A stretch of 64,000 nucleotides of DNA from a virus (IMGVR_UViG_2713896899_000007:7041-71040); one strand, 5' to 3'. Shown: positions 27,906 to 38,186, numbered from the stretch's first letter. Numbers and translations are program-made. Notes: generated from the sequence alone by a model not told the origin.

Positions 27906-28133
27906 ATGGTTATTTTCATCTCTGGCGTAAATATCAATAATCATACTCTTGTTTATGATATTGCTGGTTTAGCTGGATATGCTCTAAGTTCTGAAGTGGT
28001 TGATGAAACAACGTTTAAAATAAACATCAATGACGTAGAACATAGAGCGCGCGTAGGAATCAATGAAGCTGATGTTACTTTAATGCTTCAAGAATTTTTA
28101 AACGCTGGCTTTAATATTCACTTAGAAAAATAA
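27906..28133 (+). CDS. Hypothetical small protein
   Basis: RBS AAGGAG at 27890-27895, ATG 27906; followed by strong terminator. Confidence 0.4.
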   Translation: MVIFISGVNINNHTLVYDIAGLAGYALSSEVVDETTFKININDVEHRARVGINEADVTLMLQEFLNAGFNIHLEK

Positions 28134-28140
28134 AAACAAT

Positions 28141-28165
28141 AGCGCCCACTATGGGCGCTTTTTTC
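28141..28165 (+). terminator. Rho-independent terminator closing the AT-rich island
   Basis: AGCGCCCACTATGGGCGCT followed by TTTTT. Confidence 0.7.
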
Positions 28166-28187
28166 GTTTACAATACACCCACCATAA

Positions 28188-28210
28188 CGCGCCAATAATG
28201 GCGCTTTTTT
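28188..28210 (+). terminator. Second stacked rho-independent terminator
   Basis: GCGCCAATAATGGCGC followed by TTTTTT. Confidence 0.65.
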
Positions 28211-28623
28211 ATTGTCTTTAACTCACTCCAACAACATAAAAATAAGCGCCAAAATAACGCCATAGACGCGCTTTTATATCCTTGTCAGTACATACCCATT
28301 ACTTAACACATTAACGCGCTTAAAATGCGTTATATTGCGCTATAACGTATGGCTAATCATTAATTTTTATTCTTGCTATGTGATCCGCGTTTAATTGTCG
28401 GCGCGGATCGGCATTTTGTTTTGTTCCGTATCCGCTCGCGTATTATGTGCGCGTGATTTTTCACATAATCACACCACTTAATCACGTATGTGATTATGCT
28501 ACGAAAGAAATCTGGATGTCTCAGGCGACGAAAGTCATCATAATTTTCCCCGCTCACCTGTCCGACAACCGCTGGTTGGATTCCACCAGCTTCCCGATGT
28601 TTTTTCTACATAAAGGCGAATGC

Positions 28624-28745
28624 AGCCGTTTCCCGAAAAAATCCTGGCCGTTTCCCGTCGGCTCATGAATGCGTTCCTTGCCGTTTCTGAAAATTTCCCT
28701 GCGGCAGCTGGTGGCTATAGAGAAAGGGCCGTTTCTGGCCCTCTT
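28624..28745. repeat. Array of GCCGTTTCCC/GCCGTTTCT repeats (4 copies) plus CCCTGCGGC-TATAGAGAAA box
   Basis: GCAGCCGTTTCCCGAAAAAATCC, GGCCGTTTCCCGTCGG, TGCCGTTTCTGAAAAT, GGGCCGTTTCTGGCCC. Confidence 0.6.
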
Positions 28746-28750
28746 CTCAG

Positions 28751-29233
28751 TTACACGCCATCAAGGATGTGGATGCGGTTGCTTGCGTATACATTCAGCA
28801 TAAAGTTAGCGCAAAACAGTTTCCATGTATCAACGCCAGCGGTATACGTAATGTTTTTGCATTTAATTGCATTGTTGGCGATCTGCGTAGCCAGTGATAT
28901 GGCTTCATGGTCAGTAAAGCCGTATGACGTTTGGGTCTTCATCCAGACAGAAATCTGCGTAGCGAACTCAATCAGCTTGGACTGGCAGAATCGCCCGGAG
29001 CGCACCGGAAAGACGAACGTTCCGAATCCAGAATTTACCACATACGCTTTCTCAAATACCCGAGAGTAACGACGATTGCCAATGATGTCGCGTGCAATAA
29101 TGCATTTTTCTTGTTCTGACAGTTCTACCGTCTCATTGTGACGCCAGGCACCAAGTACTCGTTTTTCAATGTCAGAGAACGTTACAGCGATATTGCCATG
29201 TGCGGGTGCGTTTACAGTAGCGATAAAATTCAT
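28751..29233 (-). CDS. Hypothetical early protein
   Basis: 160-aa ORF preceded by conserved leader motif at 29253-29275. Confidence 0.45.
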   Translation of the reverse strand: MNFIATVNAPAHGNIAVTFSDIEKRVLGAWRHNETVELSEQEKCIIARDIIGNRRYSRVFEKAYVVNSGFGTFVFPVRSGRFCQSKLIEFATQISVWMKTQTSYGFTDHEAISLATQIANNAIKCKNITYTAGVDTWKLFCANFMLNVYASNRIHILDGV

Positions 29234-29438
29234 GATTAATTCCTTATCGTAAATAACAAATTGTTTTCTTGTTGGCGTTAATTATCGTTGTACGAATAAG
29301 GCGTCAAAGTGGAAAGTTGCGGTAGCCGGACGGGAACAGGTGGGTTTGTCGGTTGCCTGGAGGTAAGAGGTTGGTGTTTTTAGCCTGCGGGGAACAGGAT
29401 GGTCATTTAAGGCCACCAGCGTTAACTGGTGGCGTTTG

Positions 29439-30137
29439 TCATGCTGGAATCATATCTAATTGAAAAGATTCCATTATATATGTTGGTTCATCGATGTAGT
29501 CCTTCAGCCTATTGTCAAATGACTCAAGCGGATTGTATGGCGGATGATGCCGCTCCGAGTATTCATTTAAAAGATGCCCCATTATCAGTTCGATACCCAT
29601 CTCTACTCCTGAAACTCCGAACCATACATTGTGCGTTAGTTGCTGGGCGTCTGTATCCAGTACGCGAACGCCATCAACAAGATTTATTAGATTCCTGTGG
29701 TTTTCGTGTACTGTAACCTCTCCGCTGGTTAAGTCTATTTCAGCGAGAAAATATGGTCTTTTGCTTCCGTCGGACTTTTTGAAATGACCGTCATAAGCGA
29801 TAGCAAACCACGCTTTACTAAAGTCCTTGTTGGCGTAAGTGGTGCACATACAACTAGGATAATCATCAATGTTAAACCAATCAGGAAACGGATCATCTTT
29901 AGACGAGCCAGCAAAATCATCAGCTAGTTCGTAGCTAATGTCTGGGTTGTACTTGCTGACAAAATCATCTACATCCTCTACATCCTCAACACCTTTCCAA
30001 ACTTTACATCTCTCCGACCAAAAGAATCTCGCAATATCCGAAATGACTGGGAAACGTTTTTCAATTGAATTTATCAACTCTGCATGTTCTTTAAGAGATT
30101 TACGCTTGTTGATAAGCTTCTGAAGATGCGTACTCAT
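29439..30137 (-). CDS. Hypothetical early protein
   Basis: 232-aa ORF; conserved promoter motif plus GATAAT at 30150-30211 upstream. Confidence 0.45.
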   Translation of the reverse strand: MSTHLQKLINKRKSLKEHAELINSIEKRFPVISDIARFFWSERCKVWKGVEDVEDVDDFVSKYNPDISYELADDFAGSSKDDPFPDWFNIDDYPSCMCTTYANKDFSKAWFAIAYDGHFKKSDGSKRPYFLAEIDLTSGEVTVHENHRNLINLVDGVRVLDTDAQQLTHNVWFGVSGVEMGIELIMGHLLNEYSERHHPPYNPLESFDNRLKDYIDEPTYIMESFQLDMIPA

Positions 30138-31238: not shown

Positions 31239-31568
31239 TTACGCGAATACTTCAAGAAACTCCTGAACGTCCCAATGCTGGACAAGGTGAAGATAGACCT
31301 TAGAAATCACGTCATTCTCGCTATCGCATGTGAAGTAGTACTTCTGGCTGCGGTTGTATGTGTCCACACAAAATTCGCTCATATCCATAAAGTCAGCATC
31401 TTCTCCCATGTCGCAAATCATCAAAGCAGGTGCGTCATCACGAGTCATCAGCTCAAGCACCCACCGCGAATTGATCAGAGTGGAAGACCAACCTTCCAGC
31501 TCACAGAACTGGTCAAACTCTTTTTGAGTCAATTTCTTAATTTGGTTGATGTCGATATGTGCAAACAT
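31239..31568 (-). CDS. Hypothetical early protein
   Basis: Start set to ATG 31566-31568 (MFAHID) with AAGGA RBS; the track start ATG lies inside the promoter motif. Confidence 0.4.
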   Translation of the reverse strand: MFAHIDINQIKKLTQKEFDQFCELEGWSSTLINSRWVLELMTRDDAPALMICDMGEDADFMDMSEFCVDTYNRSQKYYFTCDSENDVISKVYLHLVQHWDVQEFLEVFA

Positions 31569-31580
31569 AAAGCAATCCTT

Positions 31581-31614
31581 AAACAACATGTTTTCTTATT
31601 GGTGTTATTATCGC
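31581..31614 (-). promoter_or_regulatory. Early promoter/leader motif instance
   Basis: minus-strand GCGATAATAACACCAATAAGAAAACATGTTGTTT then AAGGA RBS. Confidence 0.45.
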
Positions 31615-31926
31615 AATAACGCACAGGCGAAAAAGGATTTTATTCCGGTGAATGTGGTTTTGGCAGTGAGTTTTCAGGTTCAGTACCGAGTACACTTTTT
31701 ACATTATTCTGATTTAGTGGCCGAAGATGGCTGGTGGGCAGAATAATCCTCTCCCCGAAAACCTACTGAAATCGATTGTGACCCGCTGGCTGTCTGGCAC
31801 AATTACGCTGTAGCTGGGCATTCAGAGGGAATCCAGCGGTAAGTTCGCCTGCACGTGAGCGCCTCTCTTCTTACCGCACATTACAGGTGGGTAGCCGCAA
31901 CTCTCCCTCACGCTATACCGGTACGC

Positions 31927-32060
31927 CACCGTTCCTGAACCGGCATCGAGCCTTTTCCCGAAATCCACACAGGCAACTCTACCGTTTCCCTGAAAATCCC
32001 CAGCCGTTCCCCGAAGGCAACCCAGCCGTTTCTGTAGCGGGATGCAGCCTTTCCCTGTAT
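31927..32060. repeat. Second array of CCGTTTCCC-type repeats (6 copies)
   Basis: ACCGTTCCTGAA, GCCTTTTCCCGAAATCC, ACCGTTTCCCTGAAAATCC, AGCCGTTCCCCGAAGG, AGCCGTTTCTG, AGCCTTTCCCTG. Confidence 0.6.
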
Positions 32061-32169
32061 GGACCGAAGGCTGACCGTAGGGGTGTTACGGGGGATAAAA
32101 TCAGGAGTTGAATAAATACGAAAAAGGAGGCGACACCCCTACTTCCCTCTCCACTTATACATACCAGGC

Positions 32170-32950
32170 TTCTTCGCTATACATGTTGTGTTTTCTTCGT
32201 GTTTTATCTGTCTCAACCTCTCTATAGGCGTTAATGCTCACTCCTACCAGAACGTTCTATACGGCGACTATTTCTGTTGGTGGATTAGGTGTGTTGTTTT
32301 CTCTGTCGGTGTATGTGGTTTCGTTCGTTTTGCGGTGGTTCTTCTATGGGGTGTTCTCGTCGTTTTGGTGATTGTTCTTCTCCGTATATGGAGTAATGGC
32401 AGGTGGGCGATTGCTTTCGTTATTGTGTTTGAGTTGTTTGTCTGGAGTGTGTGAAAGGCTTTTGTAGTTATTCGTGTATTGGGTAATGGCGTTTCCCGTG
32501 ATTGTTATGTTTCGTGTCTTTTGGGATTGAGAGAAACCTTGCGGTTACAGGCTTCGTTGGGGTTTCAGTGATTCTGGTGTTTCTTCGCTGTTTGGGGAAT
32601 GGCGTGTCGTGGGTATCGCGCGTGTGAATGTTTTCGGATTGCCTGTGAAAGTTAGGTTGGTTATCCGGTAGCCTGGGAAGAAGAGGTGGGTCTTTTCGGT
32701 AGCCTGCCATAAAGAGGTTGGTTGTTTTTGGGAATGGCATGTGTGTTATTTAGTTGTTTTGTTATGCCTGAAAATAAGTTGTTTATATGGTTGTGTAACG
32801 CAACGGGAGCGATTTTGAGCGTGTGTTTTTGTTGGTAGTGTGTTGAGTCGTCTGTGGTGAAAATTGGACGCTGTGGAGCTGTCTGCTGCGTAGGATTACG
32901 GGTATAAGAAGTGATGTGTGAAAACGTCAATTTTTTAGACCAAATCGGGA
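32170..32950. other. ORF-poor, strongly G+T-skewed repeat-rich region (candidate origin, centromere-like site or noncoding RNA locus)
   Basis: Top strand about 80-85 percent G+T in spot counts; at least 10 same-orientation GTTGTTTT(C) half-sites; four GGnAATGGC repeats at about 100-bp spacing (about 32395, 32485, 32598, 32730); only low-complexity ORFs. Confidence 0.5.
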
Positions 32951-33136
32951 GAAAGCGTTGATGTTTCGTTGATCTGTTATTTAGTTGTTTTCTTATTGGT
33001 ATAAACAACTGTAACCTATTGATATTTAAGGATGTGATTGCAGGCATGGAAGGGGAGTAGTGGCGATCAACGGATTCTTATAGAAAAGAATCAAATTGTG
33101 ACCGCCATTATCAACGGTTTGAATATGTTTGCAGAT

Positions 33137-33445
33137 TTACCAGTTCCAGCACTCAAGCCCTTCAACGACCGGCGCACCACAATCAAAATGTACAGAGTCA
33201 AAGCCTACATCAAGTACTTTCTGAATGTTAGCAATCGCGCCTTCGGATATACCATATCGACGCAAGTCGTCTTTCCAGACATCATCCTGTAACCCGGCGT
33301 GGACAATACAACCGCCATCAATTTGTGAAACCCAATCCAGCTCATTGCTTGCGATCATGAATCGGCGAGCATCTTCCTCTGATGTATGAGATGAACTGAT
33401 CAATGCCACCTGGTAGGCTTGGGTAATGTTCAACATTTCAACCAC
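33137..33445 (-). CDS. Hypothetical early protein
   Basis: 102-aa ORF; upstream both motif variants and a GATAAT hexamer (33448-33510). Confidence 0.4.
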   Translation of the reverse strand: MVEMLNITQAYQVALISSSHTSEEDARRFMIASNELDWVSQIDGGCIVHAGLQDDVWKDDLRRYGISEGAIANIQKVLDVGFDSVHFDCGAPVVEGLECWNW

Positions 33446-33496: not shown

Positions 33497-33636
33497 CAGA
33501 AAACAAATTGTTTTAGGTACTGTGTAAATCAGAAGGGATTGTGTCTATATGAAAATGCCCGGCGTGTTGCCGGGCATTGCGAAGAGAGGTTGTTTAATTA
33601 CTTAACCTGGTGGCCAGGTTTAGCACCGGCATCCGG
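33497..33636. repeat. metG 3'-end repeat copy 1 (promoter motif + terminator + last 13 codons of metG)
   Basis: 140 bp, about 88 percent identical to 34367-34506; carries [12 protein letters not shown]-stop in frame. Confidence 0.8.
33554..33578 (-). terminator. Terminator hairpin within metG-end repeat copy 1 (serves the degenerate HD gene)
   Basis: AATGCCCGGC...GCCGGGCATT stem with U-run on minus strand. Confidence 0.5.
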
Positions 33637-34327
33637 CTGCAGGATGGGAGGTTACGTTCGCGCTATGTTGATATTCTGATTGACGCCATTTGTGCCAAAT
33701 CATCTCCTTATAGGATTCATATTGCGTTCGGTACTCTGGCTTCAAGTCAGATATGCCTTTATTCACTACCGCTCGTACGTTTACTAATAATTCGTGCTCA
33801 ATGCCTTTACTCTCTAAATATTCTACAACACCAGCATCGGGGCCAATTGCCCTGCCGTTAAAGACCATTTCCAGCATAAGCTCTGTTTCAGCAAAATAGA
33901 TAGGTGAGGAACCAGGTGCACACAGCTTAATAGCAGTAAGATTGTCCAACAGGTCGGCCAATTTAATCATTCGCGTCTGCATATCCAACGTCTTTTGCAA
34001 TTCGCGAACATTAATAATGAATCTCGCAAGACTATCGCCGTCGTCTGGTTTGGCAACGTTTGCCAGCGCCAGTACCATCTCAGCTACACGATTCCCGAAA
34101 TACTCGCGTACCATTTCGATAGTGATATGGGTATCTTCAATAACACCATGTAATAATGCAGCAGCCTGCATTTCGACAGTGCCTCCGTGCCAAGCAACAA
34201 TCTCACGCACAGAAACTGGGTGTGTAACGTAGTCTTCCCCCGTATATCTACGCTTCTTACCTACACCACCATACACTCCAACGGCAAACATATGAGCTTT
34301 ATCAACAATCGACATAATTTGCTCCAT
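33620..34327 (-). CDS. RelA/SpoT-type HD hydrolase paralog with substituted catalytic residues (probable pseudo-enzyme)
   Basis: About 65-70 percent identical to the hydrolase at 42687..43328, but AH-GQ became VY-GK and both HD became HG (WHGG, LLHGVIEDT); C-terminus runs into the duplicated metG 3' fragment in another frame. Confidence 0.6.
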   Translation of the reverse strand: MEQIMSIVDKAHMFAVGVYGGVGKKRRYTGEDYVTHPVSVREIVAWHGGTVEMQAAALLHGVIEDTHITIEMVREYFGNRVAEMVLALANVAKPDDGDSLARFIINVRELQKTLDMQTRMIKLADLLDNLTAIKLCAPGSSPIYFAETELMLEMVFNGRAIGPDAGVVEYLESKGIEHELLVNVRAVVNKGISDLKPEYRTQYESYKEMIWHKWRQSEYQHSANVTSHPAAGCRC

Positions 34328-34366: not shown

Positions 34367-34506
34367 CAGAAAACAAATTGTTTTAGGGGCTGAGTAAATC
34401 AGAAGGGATTGCGTCTATATGAAAATGCCCAGCAATACGCTGGGCATTGTGAAGAATGGTTGTTTAGTTACTTAACTTGGTGGCCTGGTTTAGCACCAGC
34501 ATCCGG
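34367..34506. repeat. metG 3'-end repeat copy 2 (authentic metG terminus and terminator)
   Basis: Direct repeat of 33497-33636, offset 870 bp. Confidence 0.8.
34420..34448 (-). terminator. metG rho-independent terminator (within repeat copy 2)
   Basis: AATGCCCAGC...GCTGGGCATT stem followed by UUUU on minus strand, 20 bp after metG stop. Confidence 0.6.
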
Positions 34507-36501
34507 GCTTAACAGGAAGATATCTTTCCCGCCGGGGCCAGCAGCCATCACCATGCCTTCGGAGATACCGAAGCGCATTTTACGCGGAGCCAGGTTAGCC
34601 ACCATAATTGTGTGACGACCAATCAGTGCCTGTGGGTCTGGATAAGCAGAACGGATGCCTGAGAAGACATTACGCTTTTCACCACCGAGATCCAGTGTCA
34701 GGCGCAACAGTTTGTCAGAACCTTCAACAAACTCCGCGTTTTCAATCAGCGCCACACGCAGGTCAACTTTGGCGAAGTCGTCAAAGGTGATGGTTTCCTG
34801 AATCGGGTCGTCAGCCAGTGGGCCAGTAACTGGCGCGGCAGTAGCTTTCACTTCTTCTTTGGATGCTTCCACCAGTGCTTCCACCTGTTTCATATCGATA
34901 CGGTTATACAGTGCCTTGAACGGATTCACTTTATGGCCCAGCAGCGGTTGCTGGATACCATCCCAGGTCAGTTCTGTATTCAGGAATGCTTCTGCACGTT
35001 CAGTCAGTTTCGGCAGTACCGGTTTCAGATACGTCATCAGCACGCGGAACAGGTTAATGCCCATAGAGCAAATCGCCTGCAGATCTGCATCGCGACCTTC
35101 CTGCTTCGCCACCACCCACGGAGCCTGTTCATCGACATAGCGGTTAGCCAGGTCAGCCAATGCCATGATTTCACGGATAGCTTTACCAAATTCGCGGCTT
35201 TCCCATGCTTCGCCAATCACTTCAGCGGCATCAGTAAAGGTTTTGTACAGTTGCGGGTCAGCCAGTTCGCTTGCCAGCACGCCGTCAAAACGCTTGTTGA
35301 TAAAGCCTGCATTACGGGAGGCCAGGTTAACCACTTTGTTAACAATATCGGCATTCACTCGCTGAACGAAATCCTCCAGGTTGAGATCGATATCATCAAT
35401 GCGCGAAGAGAGTTTCGCAGTGTAGTAGTAACGCAGGCTGTCAGCGTCAAAATGATTCAGCCAGGTGCTGGCTTTAATAAAGGTGCCGCGAGACTTGGAC
35501 ATCTTCGCACCGTTCACCGTCACATAGCCATGAACAAACAGGTTGGTCGGCTTGCGGAAGTTGCTGCCTTCCAGCATGGCAGGCCAGAACAGACTGTGGA
35601 AGTAAACGATATCTTTACCGATGAAGTGGTACAGCTCGGCGGTGGAGTCTTTCTTCCAGTATTCATCGAAGCTGGTGGTATCGCCGCGCTTGTCGCACAG
35701 ATTCTTGAAGGAACCCATGTAGCCAATCGGTGCGTCCAGCCAGACGTAGAAATATTTACCCGGCGCGTTCGGAATTTCAAAACCGAAGTAAGGTGCGTCG
35801 CGGGAGATATCCCACTGTTGCAGACCAGATTCAAACCACTCCTGCATTTTGTTTGCCACCTGCTCCTGCAACGCACCGCTGCGGGTCCATGCCTGCAACA
35901 TTTCGCTGAAAGAGGGCAGATCAAAGAAGAAGTGTTCAGAATCACGCATTACCGGGGTAGCACCAGAAACCACCGATTTCGGCTCGATCAGTTCAGTCGG
36001 GCTGTAGGTCGCGCCACAAACTTCACAGTTATCGCCGTATTGATCTGGCGCTTTACATTTCGGGCAGGTGCCTTTCACAAAACGATCCGGCAGGAACATG
36101 CCTTTTTCCGGGTCGTACAACTGAGAGATAGTGCGGTTTTTAATAAAACCGTTCTCTTTCAGGCGAGTATAAATAAGCTCAGACAGCTGGCGGTTCTCTT
36201 CGCTGTGCGTCGAGTGATAGTTGTCATAGCTGATGTTAAAGCCTGCGAAATCAGTCTGGTGTTCCTGACTCATTTCGCCAATCATCTGCTCCGGTGTGAT
36301 ACCAAGTTGCTGTGCTTTCAGCATGATCGGCGTACCGTGGGCATCGTCGGCACAGATGAAATTAACCTCGTGGCCGCGCATTCGCTGGTAACGAACCCAG
36401 ACATCAGCCTGGATGTGCTCCAGCATATGGCCGAGGTGGATTGAGCCGTTAGCGTACGGCAGCGCGCACGTCACCAGAATTTTCTTCGCGACTTGGGTCA
36501 T
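34468..36501 (-). CDS. metG: Methionine--tRNA ligase
   Basis: 677 aa from ATG 36499-36501 ([26 protein letters not shown]...KMSKS...[10 protein letters not shown]); near-identical to E. coli MetG over full length as I recall it; the track ORF is extended upstream. Confidence 0.95.
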
Positions 36502-36658
36502 AGTAGGCATTACTTCTTTGTAGTGAAAAGGGGCTTGATAGTAACAAAATGGCCTTATGTCTGCCATGTGATAACAGCATTTCTCATAAATGATTAAATG
36601 TCGTAGCTGGAGTACACTACAAGGCGACAATTGCGCAAATTAAAATAAAGGAGACGGG

Positions 36659-37759
36659 ATGAGCGAGTCCAAATCGCCGGATGCCCTGAGAGCAATGGTA
36701 GCCGGTACGCTGGCTAATTTTCAGCACCCAACCCTGAAACACAACCTGACTACGCTTAAAGCGTTACACCATGTTGCGTTGATGGATGACACACTGCATG
36801 TCGAACTAATCATGCCTTTCGTGTGGAATAAGCCTTTTGAAGACCTGAAAGAGCAATGTAGTGGTGATCTGCTCCGTATCACTGGCGCAAAGGCTATTGA
36901 CTGGAAGCTGTCGTACAACATTGCCACGCTTAAGCGCGTCAAAAACCAACCAGGCATTAATGGTGTTAAGAATATTATCGCCGTAAGCTCAGGCAAGGGC
37001 GGTGTAGGCAAATCGTCCACAGCAGTAAACTTGGCACTGGCGTTGGCTGCTGAAGGTGCGAAAGTTGGTATTTTGGATGCCGATATCTACGGGCCATCAA
37101 TACCAACCATGCTGGGCGCGGAAAACCAACGTCCAACCTCACCGGACGGTACTCACATGGCACCTATCATGTCTCATGGCCTGGCAACCAATTCAATTGG
37201 CTATCTGGTCACCGACGACAATGCAATGGTGTGGCGTGGACCGATGGCCAGCAAGGCGCTGATGCAGATGTTGCAGGAAACACTGTGGCCTGATCTGGAC
37301 TATCTCGTTCTCGATATGCCGCCGGGCACTGGTGATATTCAGTTGACGCTGGCGCAGAACATTCCTGTAACTGGTGCGGTTGTGGTAACTACGCCGCAAG
37401 ACATCGCGCTGATCGATGCGAAGAAAGGCATTGTGATGTTCGAAAAAGTCGAAGTGCCAGTACTGGGTATCGTTGAAAACATGAGTGTGCATATTTGCAG
37501 TAACTGCGGTCATCACGAGCCAATTTTTGGCACCGGTGGCGCACAGAAACTGGCCGAGAAATACAACACGCAGTTGTTAGGCCAAATGCCACTTCATATC
37601 TCTCTTCGTGAAGATCTGGATAACGGAACACCAACCGTTATTAGTCGTCCAGATAGTGAATTTACGGCTATTTATCGTGACCTCGCAGATCGCGTTGCTG
37701 CCCAAATGTATTGGCAAGGTGAAGTAATACCTGGCGAAATCGCATTCCGCGCAGTGTGA
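36659..37759 (+). CDS. apbC: Fe-S cluster carrier ATPase Mrp/ApbC
   Basis: 366 aa, SGKGGVGKS P-loop, CxxC motif; near-identical to E. coli Mrp; divergent from metG as in Escherichia chromosomes. Confidence 0.95.
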   Translation: MSESKSPDALRAMVAGTLANFQHPTLKHNLTTLKALHHVALMDDTLHVELIMPFVWNKPFEDLKEQCSGDLLRITGAKAIDWKLSYNIATLKRVKNQPGINGVKNIIAVSSGKGGVGKSSTAVNLALALAAEGAKVGILDADIYGPSIPTMLGAENQRPTSPDGTHMAPIMSHGLATNSIGYLVTDDNAMVWRGPMASKALMQMLQETLWPDLDYLVLDMPPGTGDIQLTLAQNIPVTGAVVVTTPQDIALIDAKKGIVMFEKVEVPVLGIVENMSVHICSNCGHHEPIFGTGGAQKLAEKYNTQLLGQMPLHISLREDLDNGTPTVISRPDSEFTAIYRDLADRVAAQMYWQGEVIPGEIAFRAV

Positions 37760-37764
37760 TAAAA

Positions 37765-37785
37765 AGGTGGTGCATTGCACCACCT
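37765..37785. terminator. Bidirectional hairpin between apbC and the UmuD'-like gene
   Basis: Perfect 9-bp stem AGGTGGTGC/GCACCACCT with 3-nt loop; A5 tract on plus side gives U5 for the minus-strand transcript. Confidence 0.55.
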
Positions 37786-37796
37786 AAACAGTTCTC

Positions 37797-38186
37797 CTAC
37801 ATCACAGGACAATCATCAAACTCGCCACTTCTTGCGTCGTTGATAATGTGAGTGATCACACCAAACACGGCATTGCTGCCCGTGCATCCATCGTCATCCT
37901 TTGGCAATGCTTCCTTCTTACCAGTTCTTAAATCCTCCAGATGCTGACGTGGATACTTCCGGTATCTTTTTACGCGATATTCCCCATCCAGAGCGCATAC
38001 AAGCAGAGAACCATCAACCGGGGTAAGTGAGGAATCGACCACCAGCAATGCGCCCTGCAATATTCCCTCACGATGATGGCTGTCAGCCGCTCTCATGAAG
38101 TAGGTCGCTGAAGGATGTCTAATTATCTGCTGATCAAGAGAAATACGGCTCTCAGCATAATCCGCCGCAGGAGAAGGGAAGCCCAT
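37797..38186 (-). CDS. UmuD'-like S24 peptidase (begins at the position equivalent to the UmuD Cys24-Gly25 cleavage site)
   Basis: MGFPSPAADY... aligns with UmuD from Gly25; Ser (AADS) and Lys (RVKR) of the catalytic dyad retained; in-frame stop 5 codons upstream of ATG; LexA box 20 bp upstream. Confidence 0.75.
   Translation of the reverse strand: MGFPSPAADYAESRISLDQQIIRHPSATYFMRAADSHHREGILQGALLVVDSSLTPVDGSLLVCALDGEYRVKRYRKYPRQHLEDLRTGKKEALPKDDDGCTGSNAVFGVITHIINDARSGEFDDCPVM

Follow-up and report, generated by a model that had tools for sequence, protein, structure and literature searches.

A conserved non-coding module of SSU5-family phage-plasmids: a proposed Rho-type transcription barrier overlaid with sites for regulatory proteins

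The window, a stretch of 64,000 nucleotides of viral DNA analyzed at its full length, matched the ~108-kb Escherichia phages Cyrano, PhiR41_1, and CMS-2020a at 93 to 97% identity and plasmid p009_B (NZ_CP048306) at 99.8% identity (100% over positions 34468 to 37900). Judged by its sequence, it is an SSU5-family E. coli phage-plasmid (p009_B). Phage-plasmids of the SSU5 type are among the commonest extrachromosomal elements in clinical Klebsiella, E. coli, Enterobacter, and Salmonella, and resistance genes are found on them as well; one example is pHCM2 of S. Typhi. To our knowledge, their regulation is essentially unstudied. In the PGAP annotation of p009_B, no gene is placed between window positions ~31590 and ~33136. 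This gene-free gap of 1.55 kb (31590 to 33136), the core of which is formed by a G+T-rich stretch at 32170 to 33000, is bordered by minus-strand genes at 31239 to 31589 and 33137 to 33445, and the minus strand carries nearly all genes around it, including all of those flanking it. Because all neighboring genes lie on the minus strand, we suggest that the G+T-rich stretch should be read on that strand, as the core of a conserved non-coding module. The order of the module, given here 5' to 3' on the minus strand, was constant: a hairpin, operator-like and promoter-like sites, an A+C core, a G-rich block, and 22-bp-phased GGGAAACGGC repeats. Its parts, together with elements of the flanks, are as follows.

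31590 to 33136, minus strand: whole conserved gene-free module (the PGAP gap), aligned across 9 homologs
33060 to 33117, minus strand: (a), hairpin with two tiers of stem, immediately 3' of the upstream gene block
32983 to 33010, minus strand: (b), early-gene motif in an operator-like copy that lacks the GATAAT -10: AGTTGTTT-N12-AAACAACT, CCAATAAGAAAACAAC
32902 to 32930, minus strand: (c), promoter-like TTGACG-17-TTATAC(CC), with an inferred start near 32895
32753 to 32785, minus strand: (d), second operator-type site, TAAACAAnTTrTTTT...AAAACAAC
32636 to 32722, minus strand: (e), three direct repeats of ~31 nt, ACCnACCTnTT-N5-7-CAGGCTACCG, the third degenerate
32393 to 32738, minus strand: (f), four GCCATT[AC]C units (GCCATTAC units; G[GT]AATGGC on the plus strand), at 32738, 32603, 32490, and 32400
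32110 to 32152, minus strand: (g), G-rich run, pyrimidine run, then CGTATTTATTCAA; from a pattern scan, conserved, terminator-like by pattern only
31948 to 32055, minus strand: (h), RGRAA(A)MGGCTG in five units, with a 22-bp spacing among the first four
29260, 31587, 33456, 46298, 47012, 57961, and others, minus strand: early promoter/operator module
Right flank, cargo types: HD-domain gene with metG/apbC; 1.2-kb gene; DUF262 plus R-M island; CYRAN_102

The promoter of the next gene comes after (h), and the left flank is made up of early genes, a conserved set in which every member has a GATAAT promoter and a AAACAAnTTGTTT operator. The early promoter/operator module, (TG)CGATAAT-N6-CCAATAAGAAAACAAC/TTGTTT, is found directly upstream of many minus-strand genes, and exact AAACAAnTTGTTT palindromes number ten in the whole plasmid. 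The right flank consists of variable cargo that differs among relatives. Directly upstream of hairpin (a), Cyrano (L001, 9325 to 10059) has CYRAN_102, SSU5 and Klebsiella have a 1.2-kb gene, and other relatives have a DUF262 gene with a restriction-modification (R-M) island; this junction is an insertion hotspot for cargo genes. Proteins neighboring the gap belong to PHROGs without known function. The product of the gene at 33623 to 34327 (minus strand), which adjoins the element, matched Pfam HD_4, a RelA/SpoT-type HD hydrolase domain (E = 2e-15), and is possibly a small alarmone hydrolase. At 34468 to 37900 lies a divergent metG-apbC (mrp) pair with ~90% DNA identity to the E. coli chromosomal pair, which is arranged in the same way; among complete E. 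coli genomes, this cargo was found at 226 locations on plasmids.

Hairpin (a) was the only structured part of the module. It has an outer stem of GGCGGTCA/TGATCGCC, an inner stem of GATTCTT/AAGAATC, and a loop within TTTCTATAAG, and its fold of -19.1 kcal/mol (z = -3.6) was matched by 0 of 200 shuffles. The motif TTTCTATAAG-N5-GTTGATC of this hairpin was present in 22 of 22 non-redundant homologs; in the L069 lineage, the hairpin is kept with a different stem. Scanned against 185,579 species genomes, the same motif gave two Kluyvera loci that look genuine and other matches that look like chance, a sorting made by record titles, with only L086 compared with the element alignment. Downstream of the hairpin, the motif overlapping (b) had been noted initially as a promoter-motif copy facing leftward into the region, and indeed it lies at 32984 to 32999 with a 16/16 match to the element at the 5' ends of many minus-strand genes. 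Site (c) is a putative promoter: its TTGACG and TTATA are invariant in 9 homologs, it is the sole match in the 64 kb, and it is kept in distant lineages as TTGACA and TTGATC. The -10 of this site lacks either -11A at a 17-nt spacer or -7T at an 18-nt spacer, and the pattern scan omits the site. Block (g) was tried as a terminator hairpin and rejected. Although 87% of its cells are paired in 17 sequences, covariation was no better than in slid or shuffled controls, and the energy was unremarkable (-11.2 kcal/mol, z = -0.5); covariation fails to exceed the controls since a purine run can pair with a pyrimidine run whatever the register.

The region was detected by blastn in 835 plasmids from at least seven genera (Klebsiella, 427; Escherichia, 224; Enterobacter, 90; Salmonella, 49; also Citrobacter, Cronobacter, Shigella, and others), and phage SSU5 itself also has it. 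The module is retained in more than 800 plasmids, in fixed order, and the stretch is, as the initial annotation implied, a real functional element. In the comparison of the window with SSU5, the gap aligned at 68% over 1.3 kb, whereas the flanking genes did not align in DNA save for the repeated promoter motif. Among 55 IMG/VR loci fetched through the neighboring protein, 49 matched at least 1150 of 1330 profile positions by nhmmer, 5 matched in part, and L043 did not match; the matches include a second Klebsiella lineage, L069-71, in which the neighboring protein is 52% identical. In pCP102, with a neighboring protein only 34% identical, the element sequence was almost unalignable and the architecture intact. 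Our literature search found no description of the region.

Several of these homologs bear traces of rearrangement. The element of the E. coli BHD6 plasmid is chimeric, with the first ~480 alignment columns of the window type (85 to 95%) and the rest of the SSU5 type (88 to 98%), which indicates that recombination occurs inside the module. In three large Klebsiella plasmids (L013, L016, and L017), the right ~450 to 750 bp of the element survives as an insertion sequence (IS)-bounded remnant beside a DUF262 gene, corresponding to window positions ~32666 to 33125 by blastn and reaching further left by eye. In L013 and L016, a type I R-M system follows the DUF262 gene, and in L016 a PrrC anticodon nuclease is annotated. 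The remnant recurs in several 140- to 270-kb plasmids other than phage-plasmids. Since these right-half remnants are IS-bounded hitchhikers beside a DUF262/type I R-M island, they are uninformative. In L047, (a) to (c) are replaced; this locus is weak evidence, as it has undergone a rearrangement associated with IS3 in which a gene became fused into the core.

The base composition of the core is extreme. Over 32170 to 33000, the top strand has A 16.2, C 13.2, G 30.2, and T 40.3%, for a G+T content of 70.5%. In 100-nt windows, G+T was 70 to 77% from ~32250 to 32850. Across 400-nt windows of the whole 64 kb, it averaged 49.5% (SD, 3.5%) and reached its maximum of 74.3% at 32251, and the segment 32230 to 32900 stood ~7 SD above the mean of the window. 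The initial annotation was thus right to call the top strand extremely G+T-rich. On the minus strand, the core reads A 40, C 31, G 14, and U 15%, and a continuous run with C/G above 1.5 extends for 898 nt (32232 to 33130), the longest in the 64 kb; the next-longest such runs are 228 to 278 nt. From (c) to (g), the core spans 644 to 811 nt, mostly 727 to 754, in eight lineages including pCP102, with A 35 to 40, C 26 to 33, G 14 to 22, and U 14 to 16%, and A+C of 64 to 71% on the minus strand. This C-over-G skew is shared by all homologs, and is weaker in pCP102 and L069 (G, 21 to 22%), where the architecture is intact. Even the variable alignment columns are 66% A+C, with A/C the commonest pair of states, ahead of transitions. 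This pattern argues that the composition of the core is itself under constraint.

The description of the region as ORF-poor and non-coding likewise held up. PGAP calls no gene, and a search of both strands for a conserved translated protein found that neither the position nor the frame of ORFs is kept among 9 homologs. In the minus sense, 774 nt contain only 4 ATG triplets and 6 Shine-Dalgarno-like tetramers. The minus-sense core RNA, of ~740 nt, would thus be hardly translated. Nor could it fold. A long structured non-coding RNA on either strand, among the roles proposed at the outset, would account for a long conserved non-coding sequence; however, neither strand folded better than shuffles (z = -0.7 in the minus sense and +2.1 in the plus sense), the RNAalifold energy was ~0 across the core with no consensus structure and no covariation support, and the A+C-rich strand cannot self-pair. 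Rfam searches gave no match at E ≤ 10 in the region and, for the whole window, nothing at the gathering threshold. We regard a folded RNA as extremely improbable, whereas an unstructured minus-sense transcript is a live option.

C/A-rich RNA is a known type of target of the GcvB R1 seed. A sponge for this host G/U-rich small RNA, similar to AgvB or SroC and acting by C/A-rich pairing with R1, would therefore fit such a transcript, and the window holds CACAACAU at ~32190. The GcvB sequence used for comparison is present at 100% identity in each of 5426 E. coli genomes and scores 199 bits against Rfam RF00022. Duplex energies with R1 were no better than those of dinucleotide shuffles for the window, Cronobacter, and L069, and were worse for SSU5 (35 sites versus 46 ± 3.7) and Klebsiella (35 versus 49 ± 4), and the CACAACAU site lies within an insertion specific to the window lineage. 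Since R1 complementarity was not above composition, we rejected a GcvB sponge as very unlikely.

Short motifs within the core were counted against expectation. G[GT]AATGGC occurs four times on the plus strand (32393, 32483, 32596, and 32731), compared with 0.05 expected from dinucleotide shuffles, 0 of 500 of which reached four. Of the four GGnAATGGC units first reported, three are exact copies and the fourth is AGTAATGGC. The spacing of ~100 bp attributed to them did not stand: it is irregular, being 90, 113, and 135 here, with values among relatives that include 142, 135, 41, and 52. On the minus strand, these (f) units number 3 to 5 in 9 aligned homologs and 4 in the most distant relative, pCP102, with GCCATC variants in their place in the L069/L070 lineage. 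The statement that the region holds at least ten copies of GTTGTTTT(C) was an overcount, as four exact GTTGTTTT copies were found, two of them followed by C. Allowing one mismatch, there are 8 copies versus 5.1 expected, which is not significant, and their bias to one orientation follows from base composition. GTTGTTT is present in 6 copies versus ~1 expected, and only three AAACAA positions are conserved in relatives. Tandem Repeats Finder (TRF) detected no tandem repeats in the region, and no tandem or helically phased units were found inside 32170 to 33000. Chi, KOPS, DnaA box, and IHF patterns were neither conserved nor enriched in the core. By-eye candidates in the core for Ter/Tus, dif, hix/gix, sigma-54 -24/-12, RfaH ops, and lambda boxA/boxB were rejected as misfits or as resemblances that are not conserved.

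The phased repeats recur at a second locus, around an ordinary gene (28751 to 29233).

29318 to 29392, minus strand: three (e)-type repeats of 30 to 31 nt, between the post-gene hairpin and the promoter of gene 28751-29233
28620 to 28702, minus strand: GGGAAACGGC repeats of the (h) type, phased at 22 bp and following the stop codon and hairpin of this gene

Across the 110-kb plasmid, repeats of types (e) and (h) are confined to the module and this second locus (for strict (h), 31948 to 32055 and 28620 to 28702). The (e)-type repeats of the second locus lie just upstream of the -35 of the gene, and the arrangement is conserved in Klebsiella, Cronobacter, Enterobacter, and Buttiauxella. Because the repeats bracket an ordinary gene, they mark both ends of transcription units. 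A distance of 31 bp corresponds to about three helical turns and 22 bp to about two, and the (e) and (h) repeats look like candidate sites for proteins that bind duplex DNA. The (h)-type cluster falls in a non-coding zone (28127 to 28745) where plus- and minus-strand gene blocks converge; this zone holds the 22-bp GGGAAACGGC repeats, inverted repeats CACATAATCACA/TGTGATTATGTG, and two hairpins with GC stems and T runs. The post-gene hairpin at ~29400 to 29422 (GCCACCAG-TTAAC-GCTGGTGGC) consists of a Chi site and its complement, and more Chi sites lie near the repeat clusters at 28707 (plus), 28590 (minus), and 31730 (plus).

Given these repeats, roles at the level of DNA were considered. The initial annotation had proposed a ParB-bound centromere or a plasmid-mode iteron origin, a proposal with which the direct repeats in one orientation agree, as does the presence, elsewhere in the window, of genes for two proteins that have a ParB N-terminal domain. 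However, the RepA ORF lies at plasmid coordinate 1 to 1095, ~34 kb from the stretch, and cumulative GC skew over the whole plasmid is monotonic with a single jump at repA (coordinate ~0) and none at 32170 to 33000. The stretch has no phased units and no adjacent rep gene, as an iteron array would, and the repA region lacks its repeat motifs. It also lacks a parS-like palindromic or tandem array and adjacent par genes, and a putative gene for a small ParA-type ATPase is found instead at plasmid 32.2 to 32.9 kb. Finally, disruption is tolerated: the 113-kb Kluyvera plasmid pSCW13-2 persists with an IS3 inserted inside the core. A centromere or iteron origin is accordingly a highly improbable explanation. 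A replication terminus was also dropped, because RepA was located at coordinate ~0.

A platform for replication in the lytic mode is a separate matter. Such an origin would be activated by transcription, with the phased (e), (h), and (f) elements binding an initiator and both strands free of hairpins once unwound. The three-turn (31-bp) phasing of (e) and the two-turn (22-bp) phasing of (h) point to proteins bound to the duplex, hairpin (a) retains a GATC, shuffles of the plus strand are more structured than the strand itself (z = +2.1), and the BHD6 chimera implies that the element swaps as a module by recombination. Moreover, a DnaB-like helicase, DnaE, RNase HI, and a ligase are among the phage gene products, with no recognized lytic initiator or origin. 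Against this, the (e) and (h) repeats also surround an ordinary gene, which makes them look regulatory rather than origin specific; the element has no AT-rich unwinding element or conserved DnaA box (G+C, 45%); cumulative GC skew jumps only at repA; the replication genes are ~45 kb away; and the IS3 insertion is tolerated by pSCW13-2 as a plasmid. The 22-bp-phased repeats, which lie outside the stretch (31948 to 32055) and recur after another gene, leave a lytic-mode origin with some chance, and we consider it unlikely.

Expression data bear on the remaining readings. In RNA-seq of LF82/Cyrano (PMC9928086, supplementary file 2), the upstream moron CYRAN_102 reached log2 values of up to 9.2. 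CYRAN_103, which covers window positions ~32661 to 33017 and thus overlies (b) to (e), had values of 2.3 to 3.6 in 9 of 10 samples and 4.27 in one, against a floor of 2.32 (PMC9928086). These data show that the region is silent in lysogens even though transcripts of the gene upstream are present.

The textbook substrate of Rho is RNA of this kind: rich in C, poor in G, free of structure, and untranslated. Taking these observations together, we propose, as a tentative reading to which we would give less than an even chance, that the module is a Rho-loading transcription barrier combined with regulatory DNA sites, placed between accessory genes and repressed early genes. It would act as a polar barrier, or insulator, separating the variable cargo expressed in lysogens (right) from the operator-controlled early genes (left). 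Transcripts arriving from the right would first cross the strong hairpin (a); naked C-rich RNA would then be exposed, Rho would load, and transcription would terminate, after which 3' exonucleases may trim the terminated transcripts back to hairpin (a). Sites for phage regulators would overlie the barrier, namely, the two operator-type sites around the promoter-like element, the 31-bp repeats, the GCCATTAC units, and the 22-bp repeats, and they may modulate passage in lytic growth.

Several findings support a barrier of this kind. The 898-nt minus-sense run with C/G above 1.5 has no fold and no conserved ORF, and the module contains at least ~78 nt of untranslated sequence with C above G and little structure, as expected of a rut site. 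Its position is that of a boundary, between variable cargo and conserved early genes. Hairpin (a) directly follows the upstream gene block, is universal among homologs, and is stable (z = -3.6). Expression falls from CYRAN_102 to the near-floor level of CYRAN_103, possibly at hairpin (a) itself; because the drop occurs already at or before this hairpin, (a) alone could be the terminator. A similar layout in miniature follows the gene at 29442 to 30137, where a stop codon and a hairpin precede 218 nt with C/G above 1.5 that hold 31-nt repeats. On the other side, Rho terminators normally conserve composition, not sequence, and several blocks of the module are 85 to 92% conserved across genera, including the GCCATTAC units, the 31-nt repeats, and the promoter-like site. 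The core is, at ~740 nt, ~10 times the ~78 nt taken as the length of a rut site; block (g) is weak (z = -0.5, no significant covariation); and the excess of C over G is weaker in pCP102 and L069 (G, 21 to 22%) despite intact architecture. The barrier is held only tentatively because the conserved motifs, the promoter-like site, the length, and this weaker skew stay unexplained by it.

Owing to these features, a lytic-origin platform keeps some probability, and so does a trans-acting unstructured RNA of the lytic phase that would serve as a protein sponge or decoy. Once the early repressor is gone, promoter (c) would fire and yield a minus-sense RNA of ~0.75 kb, in which 4 to 5 accessible GCCAUUAC(C/U)C sites, or the C-rich track, would titrate a protein that binds RNA, either Rho itself or a factor of the phage. 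Site (c), with its invariant -35, is conserved between the operator-type sites (b) and (d), a short motif is repeated in the same orientation (3 to 5 copies in 9 aligned homologs and 4 in pCP102), the context is free of structure as a sponge needs, core length is conserved, and expression in the early or lytic phase would agree with the silence in lysogens. However, the available data sets show no expression, with lysogens at the detection floor; the -10 of (c) is poor; and no 3' end is defined, since (g) is weak. We found no enrichment of Hfq-type A-R-N runs in the core (4 observed versus 5.1 expected), on which ground an Hfq sponge was rejected, and no GGA/CsrA-type features there. A sponge is therefore somewhat unlikely in our estimate. 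In its fullest form, which we consider rather doubtful, SSU5-family phage-plasmids would make an early-lytic, structure-free, C/A-rich decoy RNA of ~0.75 kb that soaks up Rho or another RNA-binding protein in trans, with selection acting on length, composition, and the 4 to 5 GCCAUUAC sites. We know of no described class of phage effector that consists of a structure-free decoy RNA.

On balance, a Rho-type barrier overlaid with sites for regulatory proteins is the likeliest reading of the stretch, ahead of an origin, a centromere, and a folded RNA. The module is the largest non-coding element of SSU5-type phage-plasmids and aligns by DNA across genera where neighboring genes fail to; it offers a defined 1.5-kb target with named sub-elements at the border between cargo expressed in lysogens and silent early genes. 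A Rho-based insulator would explain how the phage stays dormant while cargo genes are inserted and expressed. If the module instead gives rise to an effector RNA or is a lytic origin, it would be a handle on induction and host takeover, and a decoy RNA that soaks up Rho would be a global antitermination switch made of RNA.

Known systems resemble the module in part. The dispersed AAACAAnTTGTTT operator system of this SSU5-type phage-plasmid resembles the scattered C1 operators of P1. Iteron clusters such as P1 oriR/incA, RepFIB, and P4 ori/crr share its 22-bp-phased direct repeats, here in two clusters ~3.3 kb apart; in contrast to those clusters, the 22-bp repeats of the module lie outside the G+T-rich stretch, away from any rep gene, and are absent at repA, and one cluster simply follows an ordinary gene. 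Like CsrB/RsmZ (CsrA) and CrcZ (Hfq/Crc), the core repeats a short motif in one orientation in what would be accessible single-stranded RNA, but it is three to four times longer and without GGA or A-R-N enrichment. AgvB and SroC are likewise C/A-rich RNAs from mobile elements, whereas the module is about tenfold longer and lacks complementarity to GcvB R1 beyond composition. With lambda tR1 rutA/rutB and the Rho silencing of acquired genes, the module shares C-rich, G-poor, unstructured, untranslated RNA downstream of a gene, a position where read-through into repressed phage genes would harm, and an upstream stem-loop that could serve as the trimmed 3' end. It differs from such Rho terminators in its size, ~10 times ~78 nt, in the conservation of that length, and in its internal conserved motifs and promoter-like site.
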